A stretch of DNA of 64,000 nt from an uncultured Armatimonadetes bacterium (GCA_963717145.1 OY970325.1:2560001-2624000); one strand, 5' to 3'; counted from the stretch's first letter, positions 15,690-22,274 are shown. Numbers and translations: made by a program. Notes: a model not told the origin generated them from the sequence alone.

Positions 15690-17246
15690 ACCGGCATGCA
15701 GCGATTGCCTCGAGAGCCGTTCGGACCTGGGCGGCCTGGCGGTCGCGCTTGCTTCGGATGCGCTGCTCGGGCTTCGGGAGGATGCCGAAGTTCGCGTTCA
15801 TCGGCTGGAAGTCGGTGGTCTGCGGGGACGAAATGTAGTCCGCGAGCGCGCCGATCATCGTCTCGCGCGGGAAGACGACCGGCTCCTCGCCGCTGACTAG
15901 ACGCGCCGCATTGATCCCGGCGACGATCCCCATCGCCGCCGATTCCACGTATCCCTCAACGCCCGTGATCTGGCCGGCGAAAAAGAGGGTGTTGGGTGTG
16001 GGGTGTTGGGTGTTGGGGGAACCGAACCCTCACCCCGACCCTCTCCCTCAGAGGGAGAGGGGGCTCTCATCCGCATCGTCGGCAGGAGGAGCTTCGGCGA
16101 CTCGATGTAGGTGTTACGATGCATGACCCCGTACCGCACGAACTCCGCGCGCTCGAGGCCGGGGATCATGCGGAAAACGCGCTCCTGCTCGCCCCACTTA
16201 AGCCGTGTCTGGAATCCGACGAGCCCCCACAGAGTGCCCTCCCGGTTCTCCTGTCGAAGCTGGACGACGGCGTATGGGCGCTTCGCCGTATGACCCTCAC
16301 CCCAACCCTCTCCCTCAGAGGGCGAGGGGGTACGTTGGTTGGCTGCAGAGGGAGAGGCAGCATGTGCCCGATCCTCCCCTTGCCCCCTCAAGCGTTGGGG
16401 ATGGAGTTGGACTCCATCGCCCGCCGAACATGAGGGGATGGAGTCCAACTCCATCCCCAACGCTTGAGGGGGACTCTCCGGCAGATCGAGACCCACAGGT
16501 TTCAGCGGACCGAATGCGAGCGTCTGGCGTCCCCTCGATGCGATCTCCTCGACCGGCATGCATCCCTCGAAGAGCTGGAGCGGCTCGACGGCGCTCGTCG
16601 GCATTCGTTCGGCTGCCATCAAGGCATCGTAGAACGCGTTGTACTGGTCCTCCGTCATCGGGCAGTTGAGGTAGTCGGCGTCACCCTTTCCATACCGCGA
16701 GGCGCGGAATGCGATGCCGCAGTCGATCGAGTCCGCGGTGATGGTCGGCGCGACGGCATCGTAGAAATAGAGGTAGTCCCGCCCGGTGAGCCGAGCGATC
16801 TCCCGGGCAAGAGCATCGGAGGTCAGCGGCCCGGATGCGATGATGACGACCCCTTCGGACGGAAGCTCAGTCACCTCCCCGCGGATGATCTCCACGTTCG
16901 GCAGCGATGAGAGCCGCTCGGTCACGCATTCGGCGTATCGCTCCCCATCGACCGCCAGCGCCTGACCCGCTGGTAGCCGGTGTTCCTCGGCACACTCGAT
17001 CACGAGCGAGCCGAGGATGCGCATCTCCGCCTTGAGGAGTCCGGAAGCGCTGGTGAGGAGATCGGACTTCAGCGAGTTGCTGCACACGAGTTCGGCGAGG
17101 AGGCCCGTGCGGTGCACGGGCGTCTGCTTCGTCGGGCGCATCTCATAGAGTCGCACGGACATGCCGGATCGGGCCGCATGCCAGGCAGCCTCGACTCCTG
17201 CCAATCCGCATCCGATGATCGAGATGGCCGATGGACGATGGTTCAT
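15673..17246 (-). CDS. trmFO: tRNA (uracil-54)-methyltransferase TrmFO with repeat insertions and a frameshift near 16000
   Basis: [85 protein letters not shown] continues in another frame to stop 15673. Confidence 0.9.
15988..16062. repeat. tandem TGTTGGG-type heptamers plus CCCTCACCCCGACCCTCTCCC...GGGAGAGGG element inside trmFO
   Basis: four heptamer units followed by the hairpin element; related element at ~16295-16330. Confidence 0.8.
16383..16472. repeat. 36-bp perfect inverted repeat inside trmFO
   Basis: CCCCCTCAAGCGTTGGGGATGGAGTTGGACTCCATC (16383-16418) and its reverse complement (16437-16472). Confidence 0.9.
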
Positions 17247-17281
17247 GATGCAGCATTGTACCGCAATCAGGTACATGCACA

Positions 17282-17313
17282 CAAAGGGCCCCGGGGTAGC
17301 CCGGGGCCCTTTG
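17282..17313 (-). terminator. intrinsic terminator-like hairpin after the PEP-CTERM genes
   Basis: CAAAGGGCCCCGGG-gtag-CCCGGGGCCCTTTG. Confidence 0.7.
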
Positions 17314-17335: not shown

Positions 17336-17947
17336 CTATGCAGAGCGCCTCAACCGGCGGGCGGCGCCGGCGAGGGGGAAGATCCCCAGCGCCAAGCCCA
17401 GGAGGCTGGACGGCTCAGGGACAGGCGGAGTGGGAATACTCTGAGTAGTAATGGTGAACTTGACGCCGCAGTTGTAGTAGTGGCAGTCCGGGTCGAAGCC
17501 GAGTCCGACCACACCGTTGTTCCCGATGTACGAGGTCAGGGTGTCGAGCATACCGGGCTTGTTGCTCAGGTTGAAAGTCAGGTCCTCTTCCCAGGTATTG
17601 GTGTCAGACCAATCAGCGATGAGCGGATTGCCTGCCCAATTGTCTCCACCGTGCTCATTGTCGCTCCAGCGCTTGACGCCGGTCTGTGGGCTGTCGAGCA
17701 GATGGATGTACAGATGATCGTTCGACTCCTTGGTCCAATCGTCGATATTGTCGATGAACAGGGTGGCTTCCGTGATGCACTCACCGGCCGGGATGCTCCA
17801 GCGGATCCCCCAGGAGTAGTAGTACCCGTGATCCAGGTCCCAAAGGTCAGCATCGCTCGGCACGAACTGATACTGGGCGGCGGATGCCGGAAGTACCAGC
17901 GTGAGAAGCGCAAGGGCGGCCAAGACTGTGATGATTGCTTTCGACAT
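17336..17947 (-). CDS. PEP-CTERM sorting domain protein 1
   Basis: signal peptide; DLWDLDH...GLGFDPDCHYYNCG core; VPEPSSLLGLALG + TM + RRLRR. Confidence 0.9.
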   Translation of the reverse strand: MSKAIITVLAALALLTLVLPASAAQYQFVPSDADLWDLDHGYYYSWGIRWSIPAGECITEATLFIDNIDDWTKESNDHLYIHLLDSPQTGVKRWSDNEHGGDNWAGNPLIADWSDTNTWEEDLTFNLSNKPGMLDTLTSYIGNNGVVGLGFDPDCHYYNCGVKFTITTQSIPTPPVPEPSSLLGLALGIFPLAGAARRLRRSA

Positions 17948-18028
17948 TTCCTTCTCCTTTTGCATGTATGGATGCCGGCGCTCGCCCTGTTGCCGGGTCG
18001 AGCGTCCGATCTCGTCTGTGTGCGGTCG

Positions 18029-18679
18029 CTAGGCCCTGCGCCTTCTCACGGCCAGGGTTGTCAGCGAGGTCAGGCCGAAGGCCAGTGTGAGGAGGCTGGC
18101 CGGCTCCGGGACAGGCGGGTACTCAGGGTCGTCATCGACGGCGCACCTGTCGTGCCATGTCTGGCCATAGACCGGGTTGGTAACAGCAGTCCACTTCTTC
18201 GAACCGTCGAGCGATCCACTCCCCGGCTCGACTTGCGCCACGTGTGACAGGAAGCCGAGAGCGTCGGACCCGTCGTCGCGCTGATTGGCTATCGGAGCGA
18301 CCGGGTTGAAGGTGTACGTGAAGACTACAGACTGCCCCGGAGCAATCGCAGGGGGTGTGTAGTACTTCTGGTTGCTCGCCTCGATCTCGAAGGTCTCCCA
18401 GCCGTGGGATGTCCATTCCCAGCCCACCGGCGCCGTCCAGGAGATCGGCGCAGGCACGTTGAACGGTTGAAGCGTCCAAATGATGGCAAGTGGCGTGCCC
18501 GGGCTGTCGCTCCCATTGGTCAACGTCCAGGTGTATGTGTTCGTATCGGTATCCAGCATCGACTCCACGATCGTGATGCCGCTGGTCTTGGCGGACGACC
18601 AGGACTGGGCGACTGCGGGCAGTGCGAGAACCGCCATCAGCAAAACAACTACGGTGAGGACGGTTGCATTCCTAAGCAT
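18029..18679 (-). CDS. PEP-CTERM sorting domain protein 2
   Basis: signal peptide; VPEPASLLTLAFGL + TM + RRRRA. Confidence 0.9.
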   Translation of the reverse strand: MLRNATVLTVVVLLMAVLALPAVAQSWSSAKTSGITIVESMLDTDTNTYTWTLTNGSDSPGTPLAIIWTLQPFNVPAPISWTAPVGWEWTSHGWETFEIEASNQKYYTPPAIAPGQSVVFTYTFNPVAPIANQRDDGSDALGFLSHVAQVEPGSGSLDGSKKWTAVTNPVYGQTWHDRCAVDDDPEYPPVPEPASLLTLAFGLTSLTTLAVRRRRA

Positions 18680-19254
18680 TTCAATTCCCCTTTCCAATAT
18701 GGCCCTCCGTGGCCATGCAGATCATTGTCGACGCGGAGATACTTGCGGCGAATGGAGGATACCATTCTGGAGACCGCCTGCCTCGATATGCACAGGAGCG
18801 CAGGCAGATCGCGCTGTTCGTAGCCCTGTCTCATCAGCTCGTAGCATCTGTGCTCGCCCGGGCTGAGCATCGATTCCATGCGCTCGATATTGTCCCGAAG
18901 GATCAGGTGCTCGCATGGGTCACAGTGCTGATCGAGCTGATCAGCGCGGAGATCTCCGAGTGAGGTCTCCCACTCATAGCCGGTAAGCTCTCGCATACCG
19001 ATCGAACGGGAGCGGTCTATCCAAAGGTTGCGGATGGTATGGCGAAGGAACTGTTTCGGGAACTGGATGTCGTTCTCGTAACGGAGTACGGCGAGCAAGG
19101 CCTCTGATGCGAGGTCTTGCTGATCGTTATAGTCCGCCGAAAACTCCCGTGCACAGACGACAGCCAACATGAACAGTTCCTTAGCACGGAGGGAATCGTC
19201 GGGCCACTCGAGTCTGGGTGACACAGGAAGTCCTGTGGAGGTGTGGACCAACAT
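18649..19254 (-). CDS. small sigma70-family (ECF/group-5-like) sigma factor A
   Basis: sigma2-like QDLASEALLAVL...FLRHTIRNLWID; sigma4-like LSPGEHRCYELMRQGYEQRDLPALLCISRQAVSRMVSSIRRKY. Confidence 0.72.
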   Translation of the reverse strand: MLVHTSTGLPVSPRLEWPDDSLRAKELFMLAVVCAREFSADYNDQQDLASEALLAVLRYENDIQFPKQFLRHTIRNLWIDRSRSIGMRELTGYEWETSLGDLRADQLDQHCDPCEHLILRDNIERMESMLSPGEHRCYELMRQGYEQRDLPALLCISRQAVSRMVSSIRRKYLRVDNDLHGHGGPYWKGELKCLGMQPSSP

Positions 19255-19342
19255 TTTTCATCTTTCCTTCGATAGACGCCCCCGCCTTATGGCGAGTGAC
19301 TTTAGCTGCTGGGGCAAATCTTTGTCTGCCCCTTCAGGTGGA

Positions 19343-19453
19343 TAGACAAGCGAGGGGACCAAATGTCAACCAAAAAAGTTCAGAAATCGCGCCGGAGGGC
19401 AATCTTTCGGTTTTCGACATTTCTGGTTGACATTCCGGGAGTTCAAACGTCTA
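19343..19453. promoter_or_regulatory. back-to-back putative alternative-sigma promoters GGTTGACATT-N13-YGTCTA
   Basis: minus: 19371-19362 then TGTCTA 19348-19343; plus: 19425-19434 then CGTCTA 19448-19453; identical spacing. Confidence 0.7.
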
Positions 19454-19497
19454 CACAGTGGTAGCCGATTCGGCTGCGATGAAGTTGTCCATGGTAG

Positions 19498-19680
19498 ATG
19501 AAAATGTGGGTAGTTCTGTGGAAAGATAGCAGATCCGGAAGATCCGGCGCGCTCAAGTGTCCGGGCAAGCAGACTTGGAAGGACGCCGAAGGTCATGCCA
19601 GAGCGCTCAAAGCTCTGTTCCCTGAGCGCAGATTCCAGGTCGGTTGGGTGCAACTCGCGTCTCGGAGCACACTACAGTAG
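19498..19680 (+). CDS. 60-aa basic, Trp-rich hypothetical protein
   Basis: ORF starts 45 nt after the plus-strand promoter-like motif and fills the gap between the two sigma genes; weak RBS. Confidence 0.45.
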   Translation: MKMWVVLWKDSRSGRSGALKCPGKQTWKDAEGHARALKALFPERRFQVGWVQLASRSTLQ

Positions 19681-20184
19681 GTCTTCCGACTCCAGTTCCT
19701 CGTACTTGCGGCGTATCGAGGTGAGCAGCTTCGAGACAGCTTGCCTCGATACGCCCATGATCCCCGGCAAGTCCTTCTGCTCGTGGCCTTCCTTGAGCAT
19801 CTGATAGCACGCAAGCTCGGTCGGTGTCAGTCGCACGAGCAGCCGCTCCAGTGTGTCGCGGAGGATGACCGTCTCCGACAGTGCCTGCCGAGACTCCGCG
19901 ATATCGTCCTCGAACGCCGTGTCCGAGTTGCTGAACTCCCTGGCCCCGGCGCCTACACAGCCGCGATTGATCGCCAGCCTCCGAACTGTAGTCCAGATGA
20001 AGCTCTTTGGATGCTCTATCGGCTTCTCGTATTCCAGCAACGCGCGCACCGCATCGGAAACCAGGTCCTGGCGCTCGTCGTAGTTGCCCGAATACTGCTC
20101 GGCACAATCGGCGATGTACCTGCGCCACTGATCATCCACGCGGGACTCACGGGTTGCCTGCTCTATGTTTTCTTGAATGCTCAT
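19672..20184 (-). CDS. small sigma70-family (ECF/group-5-like) sigma factor B, paralog of A (start uncertain)
   Basis: QDLVSDAVRALL...FIWTTVRRLAIN; LTPTELACYQMLKEGHEQKDLPGIMGVSRQAVSKLLTSIRRKY. Confidence 0.72.
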   Translation of the reverse strand: MSIQENIEQATRESRVDDQWRRYIADCAEQYSGNYDERQDLVSDAVRALLEYEKPIEHPKSFIWTTVRRLAINRGCVGAGAREFSNSDTAFEDDIAESRQALSETVILRDTLERLLVRLTPTELACYQMLKEGHEQKDLPGIMGVSRQAVSKLLTSIRRKYEELESEDLL

Positions 20185-20379
20185 CTGCGACCACCCAGCC
20201 AGCATATGTGTCAGATGGCCCCGCATACTGCCTGCGGTGGTATGTCTGACTGCTGTCTCAGTGGTAGCTACTGCACGTTCCGTGCCAAAACGGACAACTC
20301 GGGGCATTTATATGCAATACTGGTATAATTGCTGGCCGGCTGCGATGGGGGTTGCAGGCGGAAGGGGCGGAAAGCAGAA

Positions 20380-20401
20380 CGGGCAGCGTTTCCGCTGCCC
20401 G
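20380..20401 (-). terminator. hairpin downstream of the PQQ-repeat gene
   Basis: CGGGCAGCG-tttc-CGCTGCCCG followed by TTCTGCTTT on the minus strand. Confidence 0.55.
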
Positions 20402-20429
20402 CACATCGTCAATCATATGTATCGATGGC

Positions 20430-22274
20430 CTAGCGATAGCCCGGGGGAGGGGCCTCGTTTGGTGTCTGGTTGCCGGATGAGGATGAGGACGAAGAGCTGT
20501 TCGCGGGTTTCGTCTGGGGAGCCGTCCTCAAGGTATTGTCGACCATGAAGGTCCATTCCTCGTAGGTCTTGTTCCCGGCCCAGTCCTCGACCGTGAGGCT
20601 GGCGACATGCCGCCCGTTGGACAGTGGGATCAGGCGAGCGTCACGGGGCGTCTTATACCAGATGACCCCGCGTTCCGGGATAACCTCGTGATCGAGCGTC
20701 TCTCCGTCGAGGGTGAGCTTGATCGTATCCTCCTTGATTCCGCTGCCGAGGTCCTTCACCAGCGCCGAGATTTCCACGGGCGGGCTTCCCGGCATCAGGA
20801 AGTTTCTCAGCGGGCGCACGGTCTCCACTCTCGGCGGAGTCGAGTCCGGGCTGTCCATCGAAAACGCAAGAAGCGCGCCATCGTCGGCCAGGACATAAAG
20901 CGTCCCATCCGCAACAATCGGAGCAGCCGCAAGGTTCACGTACCGGTACTTATACCTCTGGCTGCCGTACTCCAGGATCGACGGCATGACCGTGTATTTC
21001 CACTTGATCGCCCCGGTTTCAACGTCCAGGGCCAGGATGATCCCCTTGTTCGCGGTCACGATCACCGTGTCATCAACGACAATCGGCGAGGAGTAAGTCG
21101 GCGCGCCGATCTCGACCGGCTCCTTCCACTTGAGTTTGCCAGCATTCGTGAGGGCGCAGAACTTACTCGATTTCCCATCCTTGTAGGCAAAGTAAACGAT
21201 ACCTTTGGCCACAGCCGGGGTAGTAGTGATCTCACCAGGCACGGGGGCGCTCCACTTCACTCTCGAGCTTTTCGACTGCATGGCAAAAAGCGTGTTGCCC
21301 GCCGCCAGGTAGATAGTGTTGTCAGCCACAACCGGAGTGGCGTGCCGCGAGCCTGACCCTATCCGGGTCGCCCAGCTCAATCGGCCGGATACCGTGTTGG
21401 CGGCATAGAGAATCGTATCGGTGGACAGGAAGTATGCCAGCCCGTCGACAACCGCCGGCGACGAGGCGATCCCGTCGGCGGTACGAAAGCCGCCCTTCCA
21501 CTCCATCTCGCCCGTCTGGGCGTTAAGAGCATACAGCTTGCGATCATCGGAGCCGAAATAGAGGATATCGCCCACCAGGACCGGCGAGGACGTAATGTTG
21601 CTGCGGGTCACGAAGCTCCAGACGAGCGACCCATCCTCGGTCGACACGGCGTAGAGCCGCCCATCACCGGCCCCGAAATAGACCATCTTGTCGCCTACTG
21701 CGGGGGACGTCCTGATATTGGCGGTCAGGGTCTCCGTAGCAGGGTAACACCATCGGAATGTGCCCGTGTCAGCGTTCACAGCATACAGCCGCGATCCTGC
21801 GCCGAAGTAGATGACGCCGTCCTTGATTGCGGGAGAAGACGGGTTATCCGGCGAGACATCCGAGAGATACTTCCACGAGAGCTTGAGCGGAAACTCGAGA
21901 TGCTCGTCCGTGTAGCCGGTGTGAGCAGAATCGCCCTTGTACATCGTGTAATCGCGCCGACCAACAATCGGCTCGATCGGCGTGATCTCAGCGGCAGGGG
22001 TGTCGAGCAACGGAGCGGGCTGCTCTTCCGTCGGATTGGTCGGGCCAATCAACGGCGGTTGCGGGTAGTCGCGTCTGGAAGAGTCTCCCCTCGGCGGAGT
22101 CGGAGGCATGCCCGGAGGCGCGGGCGGACCCTCGTCGTCACCATCCGCCAGTCCGGGCGGCATGGGGGGAGGCGGACCCGCCGGCGGCCCTTCCTGCGAG
22201 AGTACAGCAATGGAGACGGACAGGATAAGAATTAGTGCTATCAGACAGGCGATCAGCCTCGTGGGCATTACCAT
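20430..22274 (-). CDS. secreted PQQ-like beta-propeller repeat protein (BamB-like) with Pro-rich N-terminus and C-terminal Ig-like domain
   Basis: repeated SSPAV.DG.VYFG..D.RLYA...G...W units; signal peptide. Confidence 0.85.
   Translation of the reverse strand: MVMPTRLIACLIALILILSVSIAVLSQEGPPAGPPPPMPPGLADGDDEGPPAPPGMPPTPPRGDSSRRDYPQPPLIGPTNPTEEQPAPLLDTPAAEITPIEPIVGRRDYTMYKGDSAHTGYTDEHLEFPLKLSWKYLSDVSPDNPSSPAIKDGVIYFGAGSRLYAVNADTGTFRWCYPATETLTANIRTSPAVGDKMVYFGAGDGRLYAVSTEDGSLVWSFVTRSNITSSPVLVGDILYFGSDDRKLYALNAQTGEMEWKGGFRTADGIASSPAVVDGLAYFLSTDTILYAANTVSGRLSWATRIGSGSRHATPVVADNTIYLAAGNTLFAMQSKSSRVKWSAPVPGEITTTPAVAKGIVYFAYKDGKSSKFCALTNAGKLKWKEPVEIGAPTYSSPIVVDDTVIVTANKGIILALDVETGAIKWKYTVMPSILEYGSQRYKYRYVNLAAAPIVADGTLYVLADDGALLAFSMDSPDSTPPRVETVRPLRNFLMPGSPPVEISALVKDLGSGIKEDTIKLTLDGETLDHEVIPERGVIWYKTPRDARLIPLSNGRHVASLTVEDWAGNKTYEEWTFMVDNTLRTAPQTKPANSSSSSSSSGNQTPNEAPPPGYR

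Follow-up and report, generated by a model that had tools for sequence, protein, structure and literature searches.

What controls the expression of PEP-CTERM genes outside the Proteobacteria? PEP-CTERM proteins are a large, poorly understood class of exosortase-sorted surface proteins, and their control is little known beyond the sigma-54/PrsKR link proposed for Proteobacteria. In the accessible part of that study, sigma-54 sites are given upstream of 99 of 167 PEP-CTERM genes (Haft et al., 2006; PMC1569441). The question is raised by a locus in the genome of an uncultured soil Armatimonadetes bacterium (GCA_963717145.1), a single contig of 5.37 Mb. Part of this genome is the window, a stretch of 64,000 nucleotides (OY970325.1:2560001-2624000), which carries at 17336-20184 on its minus strand a cassette of four genes in the order sigB, sigA, PEP-CTERM 1 and PEP-CTERM 2. 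The first two encode paralogous sigma-like proteins, here called the twins, and a small gene lies between them. Open reading frames (ORFs) and model matches bear out the preliminary description of the locus, according to which two sigma-like paralogues lie upstream of, and co-directional with, two PEP-CTERM genes. Of that description as a whole, the sigma nature of the twins is supported and a dedicated link to PEP-CTERM genes is plausible. Its contrast with sigma-54 control is not supported, and its absence of an anti-sigma factor is doubtful.

The cassette appears to be a self-contained regulatory module of one Armatimonadota family. In the best reading, to which we assign a probability of roughly 0.55, the module stands under sigma-54 and comprises the twins, TCTA-type promoters and a small feedback protein. 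A sigma-54 holoenzyme, together with an enhancer-binding protein encoded elsewhere in the genome, would fire the sigB promoter. SigB, SigA or both would then direct RNA polymerase to TCTA-type promoters. In these, the -35 box TTGACA and a spacer of 17 nt would be those of housekeeping promoters, while GTCTA would replace the -10 box, with a C at the place of the essential A of the housekeeping TATAAT. The sigA-PEP1-PEP2 operon, the divergent small gene and a few distal PEP-CTERM genes would be switched on in this way. The small protein would bind region 4 of the sigma factor or factors, most likely as a small soluble anti-sigma factor in a negative feedback. The analysis establishes the genes, their fold class, a conserved sigma-54 box, a small gene that is coding and the way the motifs are spread over genomes. 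All transcriptional steps, the assignment of twins to promoters and the sign of the small protein's effect are inferred. The order from sigB to sigA is plausible from the placement of the promoters.

The sigma2-like and sigma4-like motifs noticed earlier are found in both twins, which are 40% identical over 146 residues (E 9e-36) and represent the sole two copies of their family in the genome. Their whole-length sub-threshold matches are to sigma-70 models of the extracytoplasmic function (ECF) type only. TIGR02937 yields 27.9 bits for SigB and 26.0 bits for SigA against a curated cut-off of 42.9, and the match reaches profile position 160 of 165, in the sigma4 domain. Pfam Sigma70_r2 yields 18.8 and 20.2 bits, respectively (cut-off 24), and Sigma70_ECF 20.2 bits for SigA (cut-off 21.1). 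The remaining 34 sigma-70/ECF genes of the genome score at least 51 bits each. A profile of the twin family aligns to region 2 of Mycobacterium tuberculosis SigL with the signature DL..E..L and F/WL..RN..ID..R.

An AlphaFold (AF2) model of SigA reached a mean predicted local distance difference test (pLDDT) of 75, with 101 residues at 90 or above. Three helices (20-36, 42-58, 66-88) form the sigma2 domain and four (113-128, 132-142, 147-154, 158-181) the sigma4 domain. A disordered linker (87-111) alone separates the two bundles; with lengths of 170 and 201 amino acids, region 1.1 and region 3 are absent. The PDB matches listed by Foldseek for the model are nearly all sigma factors, the best being ECF sigmas. 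SigL ranks first (6dv9_F, E 3.6e-5), and SigH, RpoE-NepR, AlgU-MucA and sigmaE-RseA are further top matches, aligned with both domains over 160-184 columns. Helices 20-88 are placed onto sigma2 of SigL, SigH and RpoE. TM scores are low (~0.3) because the two domains orient freely. A sigma2 fold is hence present in the model as well as in the structural matches, and the earlier view of the twins as sigma-like is supported, on sequence and model, in the form of sigma-70-family proteins with ECF architecture. The twins are sigma factors by this modelled architecture, not by curated models.

Searches for relatives show a very small family, clearly separate from others. It comprises 19 clusters in a word-indexed search among 5.8 billion proteins. 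A HMMER scan of 1.84 billion representatives returned 153 matches at E 1e-3, of which 12 reach 1e-10 and 6 reach 1e-30. Pfam was applied to 20 of the HMMER matches. The 16 remote ones (E 1.9e-10 or weaker) carry mostly ordinary sigma region 2 and/or region 4, and three of them show mainly GerE or other helix-turn-helix (HTH) models; among the four close family members, two have no match and two a borderline Sigma70_r2 match only. By sequence, the remote relatives of the twins appear to be mostly ordinary ECF sigmas. PADLOC gave no match for SigA and a single weak one for SigB (E 0.0024), taken as chance. It is very unlikely that the twins are ordinary HTH regulators with a retained sigma-like fold, and not initiation factors. 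Such a role would agree with the scores below all curated sigma cut-offs and with weak GerE/LuxR-type HTH matches on the C-terminal domain. However, the twins show the region 2 signature and a complete sigma2 domain, and the DNA motif at the locus, described below, is directional, bipartite and -35/-10-like, and lies at promoter distance from gene starts; it is not a palindromic operator.

Upstream of sigB, the block TTTGGCACG-N5-TGCA (20272-20287) is invariant in six of six aligned loci and is the sole fully conserved block there. This box, TGGCACG-N5-TGCA, has the GG-N10-GC spacing of -24/-12 promoters. The pattern TGGCACG-N5-TGC[AT] occurs at 27 sites in the genome, compared with 3, 2, 7, 1, 11 and 6 sites at six control spacings, and the sigma-54-type sites conform closely to a common consensus, TGGCACGAWTCTTGCA. 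Such a site is located at most 450 nt upstream of 14 of the 71 candidate PEP-CTERM ORFs, about ten of which look false by eye. The two PEP-CTERM genes of the cassette have no sigma-54 site of their own. From its upstream sequence, sigB looks like a member of the sigma-54/PEP-CTERM regulon of this genome. Two rpoN genes (245951, 2168979) and three strong enhancer-binding-protein genes are present. The one enhancer-binding protein scanned among these three (3.048 Mb) is an NtrC/AtoC-like response regulator beside a histidine kinase. It scores 401.2 bits with the PrsR equivalog TIGR02915, under the cut-off of 502.6, while the AtoC and NtrC models score higher. The adjacent kinase matches AtoS and ZraS best, and PrsK is not among its best 25 matches listed.

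The preliminary description had contrasted the cassette with the sigma-54 control of Proteobacteria. This contrast is not supported: a conserved sigma-54-type box heads the cassette, which makes it a tier under sigma-54 and not a substitute. The scheme proposed there, a linear cascade from SigB via SigA to the PEP-CTERM genes that replaces sigma-54 and works without an anti-sigma factor, deserves little credence. The gene order and co-direction agree with it, as does a sigA-facing motif unlike the sigB promoter, but neither the sigma-54 box nor the conserved partner gene between the twins has a place in it.

Further observations concern the sigma-54-type sites of the genome. Two -12 flavours, TTGCT and TTGCA, occur (244080-269485 and elsewhere). 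TTGCT fronts flagellar-looking genes near one rpoN gene and one enhancer-binding-protein gene, TTGCA fronts PEP-CTERM genes. Two rpoN paralogues and two -12 flavours suggest two separate sigma-54 regulons. A long tandem run of CTCCCACA-like units is located at about 249400-249530, directly upstream of the sigma-54 site before a FlgB-like gene. In locus L028, at 3047813 on the minus strand, the NtrC/AtoC-like regulator gene is preceded at 124 nt by a sigma-54-type site and would thus activate its own expression. At a distance of 7 kb from this regulator, two sigma-54 sites (3055138, 3055269) belong to a PEP-CTERM gene. The element [AT]TACC[AG]G occurs 21-75 nt upstream of 7 of 29 sigma-54 sites within a 100-nt range (background 1.9%), and likewise 39 nt upstream of the sigB site, at window position ~20320-20326. 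As a lead only, it could be a shared site for an activator or a bending protein.

The spacer between sigB and sigA, about 400 nt long, is strikingly conserved because it holds the small gene and two promoter motifs. The latter are two divergent copies of TTGACATT-N14-GTCTA. The copy facing sigA, whose end is 88 nt away from the ATG of that gene, is kept in five of five aligned loci; the genome G373 has a variant. The other copy ends 50 nt before the ATG of the small gene (19504). Genome-wide, TTGACAT-N15-GTCTA has six hits, against 0.2 expected from base composition and none for the reversed control. Two of the hits belong to the locus itself and one is probably chance. The other three precede PEP-CTERM genes at a distance of 43-112 nt; one of these genes is a paralogue of PEP-CTERM 2 (60% identical, genome position 639 kb), with a TTGACATT-N14-GTCTA motif in front of it. 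A related genome with the twins, G020, contains five hits, two at the locus and three upstream of PEP-CTERM genes. Seven genomes of the same family without twins contain one hit in all, inside an efflux-pump gene, and four hits of the reversed controls. The dedication to PEP-CTERM genes claimed earlier is plausible, as the sigA-facing motif recurs before distal PEP-CTERM genes.

The housekeeping promoter of the genome appears to be of the textbook TTGACA-N17-TATAAT type. TTGACA followed by TATA is found at 84 sites with a spacer of 17 nt and at 7, 18, 32 and 2 sites with other spacers. At the 17-nt spacer, TCTA occurs at 10 sites, TGTA at none and TTTA at one. A PEP-CTERM ORF follows 4 of the 10 TCTA sites versus 2 of the 84 with TATA (Fisher p = 9e-4). 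Sigma-54 sites and TCTA-type motifs never occur together before the same candidate PEP-CTERM ORF. Two -10 flavours are seen, CTTGTCTAT and AAACGTCTACA, with extra conserved flanks. The recognition helix of sigma4 is invariant across both twins, while region 2.4 differs (TIRNLxIDRSRS versus TVRRLAINRGCVG). This pattern would fit a common -35 box read together with differing -10 flavours.

The same promoter data bear on a simpler explanation, in which sigB, sigA and both PEP-CTERM genes form one operon transcribed from the -24/-12 promoter, the TCTA sites act as weak housekeeping promoters, possibly with the aid of an activator, and the targets of the twins are unrelated genes. It is consistent with the lack of a conserved terminator between sigB and sigA, where the sole candidate (19530-19546) has three G-C pairs and is not conserved. 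The motif is also only one base away from the 84-site housekeeping class, and one-mismatch scans of the genomes G363 and G373 return mostly GTATA sites. Against it stand the enrichment of TCTA at the 17-nt spacer, the conserved flanks, the association with PEP-CTERM genes and the near absence of the motif from the twin-less genomes. Moreover, a C stands here at position 2 of the -10 hexamer, where housekeeping sigma factors most need an A. We regard the single operon as unlikely. The inverted arrangement in the spacer was also considered as a long hairpin. This was rejected, since complementarity is limited to the two boxes of each arm and does not extend to the 14-nt middles; single directional copies elsewhere weaken it further.

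The gene between the twins is an ORF of 58 codons starting at ATG 19504; an alternative ATG at 19498 would give 60 amino acids. It was found in seven of seven loci examined. Substitutions at codon positions 1, 2 and 3 number 115, 97 and 250, and synonymous codon differences amount to 144-145 in its frame versus 27-95 in the five other frames, with no stops. Codon-position bias and synonymous differences together identify it as a real gene. The protein forms eight clusters in a large protein database, one of them named only 'hypothetical protein', and has no Pfam family. Its strong matches (E 1e-27 or better) come from exactly the four genomes with twins, and three weak partial matches occur elsewhere (E 2.8e-5 to 5.5e-4). 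AF2 predicts a beta-beta-alpha-beta fold (pLDDT 89.9), for which Foldseek returned nothing at E 1e-3. The best VIA match is PurS (Z 5.3, rmsd 2.3, 48 aligned residues), among unrelated small folds. The same simple topology recurs in small inhibitors such as T7 Gp2 (Z 4.4) and Dmd (Z 4.9), at a level that the tool calls common. Matches in the ESM Atlas stayed below 0.9 and without a family, and PADLOC gave none. Because only a single Cys and a single His are invariant, the protein lacks the HxxxCxxC zinc motif.

Complex prediction with SigA residues 18-185 and the small protein gave an ipSAE score of 0.67 (runs 0.60, 0.68 and 0.67), and the best of three controls 0.00. A score of 0.67 is reached by 116 of 157 solved complexes and by 2 of 215 mismatched pairs, a rough calibration, as the alignments were our own. 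Agreement of contacts between the runs is at least 44%, and the partner pLDDT is at least 67. All predicted SigA contacts are in sigma4 (117-124, 127, 138, 141-144, 146-147, 165, 168-169, 172) and include residues invariant in both twins (Y138, G144, E146, R169, Y172). Of the 15 invariant residues of the small protein, 8 fall inside its 17-residue predicted interface (p = 0.025). The model supports binding of the small protein to sigma4 of SigA and makes it a candidate anti-sigma factor. The earlier statement that no membrane anti-sigma or two-component gene is adjacent holds: none of the latter, and no recognisable one of the former, is located within ~5 kb of the cassette. The absence of any anti-sigma factor is doubtful, given the small gene and the predicted contact of its product with sigma4.

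In classical ECF systems the anti-sigma domain encloses sigma2 as well as sigma4. The small protein is placed on sigma4 only and shows no match, in Pfam or by fold, to an anti-sigma family such as ZAS, RskA, NepR or FlgM. It may instead be a positive cofactor or stabiliser of sigma4, as a co-sigma or appropriator-like protein, or merely be co-regulated, in a module otherwise as described; we consider this rather improbable. An anti-sigma factor is usually co-expressed from the promoter type of its own regulon, and expression of the small gene from a TCTA-type promoter would follow this design. Furthermore, the predicted contacts cover the C-terminal half of the recognition helix (165, 168, 169, 172) and helix 117-127, with which sigma4 would have to engage DNA or the polymerase flap.

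The small gene and sigB converge with a 9-nt overlap (19672-19680), and no conserved terminator is seen for either. Antisense interference between both transcripts is therefore possible.

A more far-reaching version of the sigma-54-armed module may be put forward tentatively, although we think it doubtful as a whole. It describes a three-protein sigma device of a new family. The twins would read the C-containing -10 element GTCTA and, armed by sigma-54, run a two-tier programme for exosortase-sorted proteins. They would split the targets, CTTGTCTAT marking the sigA operon and most PEP-CTERM genes, AAACGTCTACA the small gene and others. Both twins would be checked by the 58-amino-acid sigma4-binding anti-sigma factor, of a fold class unlike known anti-sigmas. 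Its invariant Cys19 and His31, near the near-invariant Cys137 of the sigma factor, could make the lock sensitive to redox state or metal.

Among 401 phylum genomes sampled, the twin pair is present in the genome studied here and in G020, G363 and G373, which belong to other genera and represent three of ten other genomes of the same family. In these four genomes the twins are always adjacent and co-directional. No pair of comparable strength exists in the rest of the sample; three weak single matches (E 5e-8 to 9e-6), two of them with internal stops, are not the same thing. Additional copies of the pair occur on metagenome contigs, and loci beyond the window are given L-numbers (L019, L020, L024, L025). 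L021 has the same sequence as the G363 locus, and G373 and L024 are close to each other. Orthologues of sigB were found in G020, G363, G373, L019 and L024, those of PEP-CTERM 1 after sigA in G020, L019 and L020. PEP-CTERM genes follow sigA in four of the five loci with readable downstream DNA: two in the window, two in G020, at least three in L019/L020 and one in G373. In G363 an epimerase-like gene takes their place. A check of neighbourhood conservation, as suggested with the first description, thus holds for the pair itself and for PEP-CTERM genes in four of five loci, and fails in G363.

A tree of the twins with remote ECF outgroups separates a SigA and a SigB clade of four genomes each (support 90/93), and orthologues across genomes are closer than the two twins within one genome. 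The duplication accordingly predates these genera, with the deepest nodes not settled; the base of the tree and the placement of the G373 pair are not settled because of long outgroup branches. In G363 (contig C59, 4306-5454, locus L014) sigB, the small gene and sigA are intact and still downstream of the propeller gene. On a metagenome contig of 2534 nt (L025, 619-2023) each sigma gene matches in two pieces, representing frameshifts or assembly errors; the small gene there is intact and has a longer tail.

Several points weigh against the module as we read it. Both twins score under every curated sigma cut-off. All carriers belong to one family, so that conservation of gene order alone is weak evidence. 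G363 has an intact module with neither an adjacent nor a motif-linked PEP-CTERM gene: TTGACAT-N15-GTCTA is found there only twice, both at the locus, in keeping with the missing adjacent PEP-CTERM gene. In G373 the strict motif is absent, and variants with one mismatch or a CT insertion are present at the locus. Motif counts are small, and the -10 flavours, like the [AT]TACC[AG]G element, were defined after viewing the data. As the motif is one base off the housekeeping -10 box, a weak housekeeping promoter with an activator is possible, and as no conserved terminator lies between sigB and sigA, sigma-54 read-through might by itself suffice to express all four genes. The complex score measures the confidence of a model and applies to SigA with the small protein only. 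Seven sequencing runs were listed for the locus, five with a measurable share of its words; all are DNA contigs with small shares, and no RNA run is among them.

The sigma2-linker-sigma4 build of the twins is that of group 4 (ECF) sigma factors with co-expressed anti-sigmas, such as SigL, SigH, sigmaE-RseA, AlgU-MucA and EcfG-NepR. Further likenesses are an apparent self-type promoter before sigA and a small partner, co-regulated with the sigma factor and predicted to bind it. The twins differ from this group in scoring under all curated cut-offs, in a -35 box identical to the housekeeping TTGACA and in their recognition helix SRQAVS..SIRRKY, which is unlike the usual ECF pattern. As to the TcdR/BotR/UviA-type (group 5) sigma factors named in the first description, no member is among the matches listed for the twins, and no search aimed at that group was made. 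Their partner differs from ECF anti-sigmas as well: it is a 58-residue beta-beta-alpha-beta protein of no known family, divergently encoded and predicted on sigma4 only. Small soluble proteins on region 4 helices are represented by phage T4 AsiA and by Rsd, and the predicted placement is alike. However, the small protein shares neither sequence nor fold with these two, and its gene is chromosomal and not of phage.

In Borrelia, RpoN and RpoS form a sigma cascade headed by sigma-54. There, too, an enhancer-dependent promoter leads to a second sigma factor and on to surface proteins. The second tier proposed here differs in being a duplicated ECF-like pair with a small partner, and its targets would be exosortase substrates. 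The PrsK/PrsR-sigma-54 system likewise has -24/-12 sites before many single PEP-CTERM genes, as far as the accessible part of its description goes (PMC1569441), and an NtrC-type response regulator beside a histidine kinase is found in the present genome, too. Differences are the phylum, the score of the scanned regulator under the PrsR cut-off, and a sigma-54 site that here appears to drive a sigma factor gene, a second tier for other PEP-CTERM genes. Nothing of the kind was found in the accessible part of that article.

In the literature, judging mostly from listings, no link was found between PEP-CTERM and ECF sigma or extracytoplasmic function factors, and nothing joining an ECF sigma factor with a sigma-54-dependent promoter. 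The accessible main text of the ECF reclassification has no mention of PEP-CTERM, exosortase or Armatimonadetes; the available portion of one supplement names neither PEP-CTERM nor exosortase, and Armatimonadetes only under ECF14 and ECF41 (Casas-Pastor et al., 2021). ECF-type sigmas with a partner, sigma-54 control of PEP-CTERM genes and sigma cascades are known kinds. Not found in print were an ECF-like family missed by curated models, a duplicated pair kept with a new small protein of predicted sigma4 binding, and, as read from the DNA, a -10 switch on a housekeeping frame and a sigma-54-to-ECF tier for PEP-CTERM genes.

The locus presents a compact, testable circuit outside the Proteobacteria. 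It joins a trigger of the enhancer-dependent type, two copies of a sigma factor too divergent for curated models, a new small putative sigma-binding protein and a promoter class essentially one -10 base off the housekeeping type. If the reading is true, it would add a sigma/partner family to the ECF catalogue and a natural -10 specificity switch, in which C takes the place of the decisive A while the rest of the frame stays housekeeping. It would also open a way into gene regulation in a phylum where genetics hardly exists.

Features of the cassette and its borders, in window coordinates
Feature	Position	Strand	Basis or remark
PQQ/BamB-like propeller gene	20430-22274	minus	upstream neighbour of the cassette
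Terminator-like hairpin	20379-20402	minus	10 pairs, 8 of them G-C, then a T-rich tail; 3' of the propeller gene
Sigma-54-type -24/-12 promoter TGGCACGGAACGTGCA	20272-20287	minus	upstream of sigB
sigB, 170 aa, divergent ECF-like sigma factor	19672-20184	minus	sub-threshold sigma matches, paralogue of sigA
Small gene, 58 aa	19504-19680	plus	between the twins; codon statistics, conservation
Promoter-like motif TTGACATT-N14-GTCTA, -10 flavour AAACGTCTACA	19427-19453	plus	faces the small gene
Promoter-like motif TTGACATT-N14-GTCTA, -10 flavour CTTGTCTAT	19343-19369	minus	faces sigA
sigA, 201 aa, divergent ECF-like sigma factor	18649-19254	minus	sub-threshold matches, AF2 model, Foldseek
PEP-CTERM protein 1	18029-18679	minus	signal peptide and PEP-CTERM tail; ORF to 18697, probable ATG 18679
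PEP-CTERM protein 2	17336-17947	minus	PEP-CTERM tail; ORF to 17965, probable ATG 17947
Terminator-like hairpin	17286-17302	minus	closes the cassette, just before trmFO

The hairpin downstream of the propeller gene is the 5' limit of the cassette; its sequence is kept in four of six aligned loci (window, G020, G363, L019). The sigB reading frame is open to 20307, and the conserved start is the ATG listed. The 3' end of sigA overlaps the start of PEP-CTERM 1, as described before, by 31 nt if the ATG at 18679 is used and by 49 nt if translation begins at TTG 18697. The tails of PEP-CTERM 1 and PEP-CTERM 2 score 21.4 and 21.8 bits with PF07589 (cut-off 20.7) and 17.2 and 22.4 bits with TIGR02595 (cut-off 16). 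A single PF09721 match (187 bits, position 4788648) represents the exosortase of the genome.

Neighbouring genes encode the PQQ/BamB-like propeller, an RNase_H_2 superfamily protein, a URO-D family protein, a LacI regulator, TrmFO and Ig-like proteins. The propeller was considered as an anti-sigma factor and rejected: it has an N-terminal signal-anchor only, without a cytoplasmic domain, and a conserved terminator follows its gene. The trmFO gene (15897-17282, minus strand) contains palindromic repeats in frame at 16026-16063, 16293-16330 and 16383-16472. Its NCBIfam TrmFO match is split into two stretches, and the repeats inside the gene look like a REP-type insertion.

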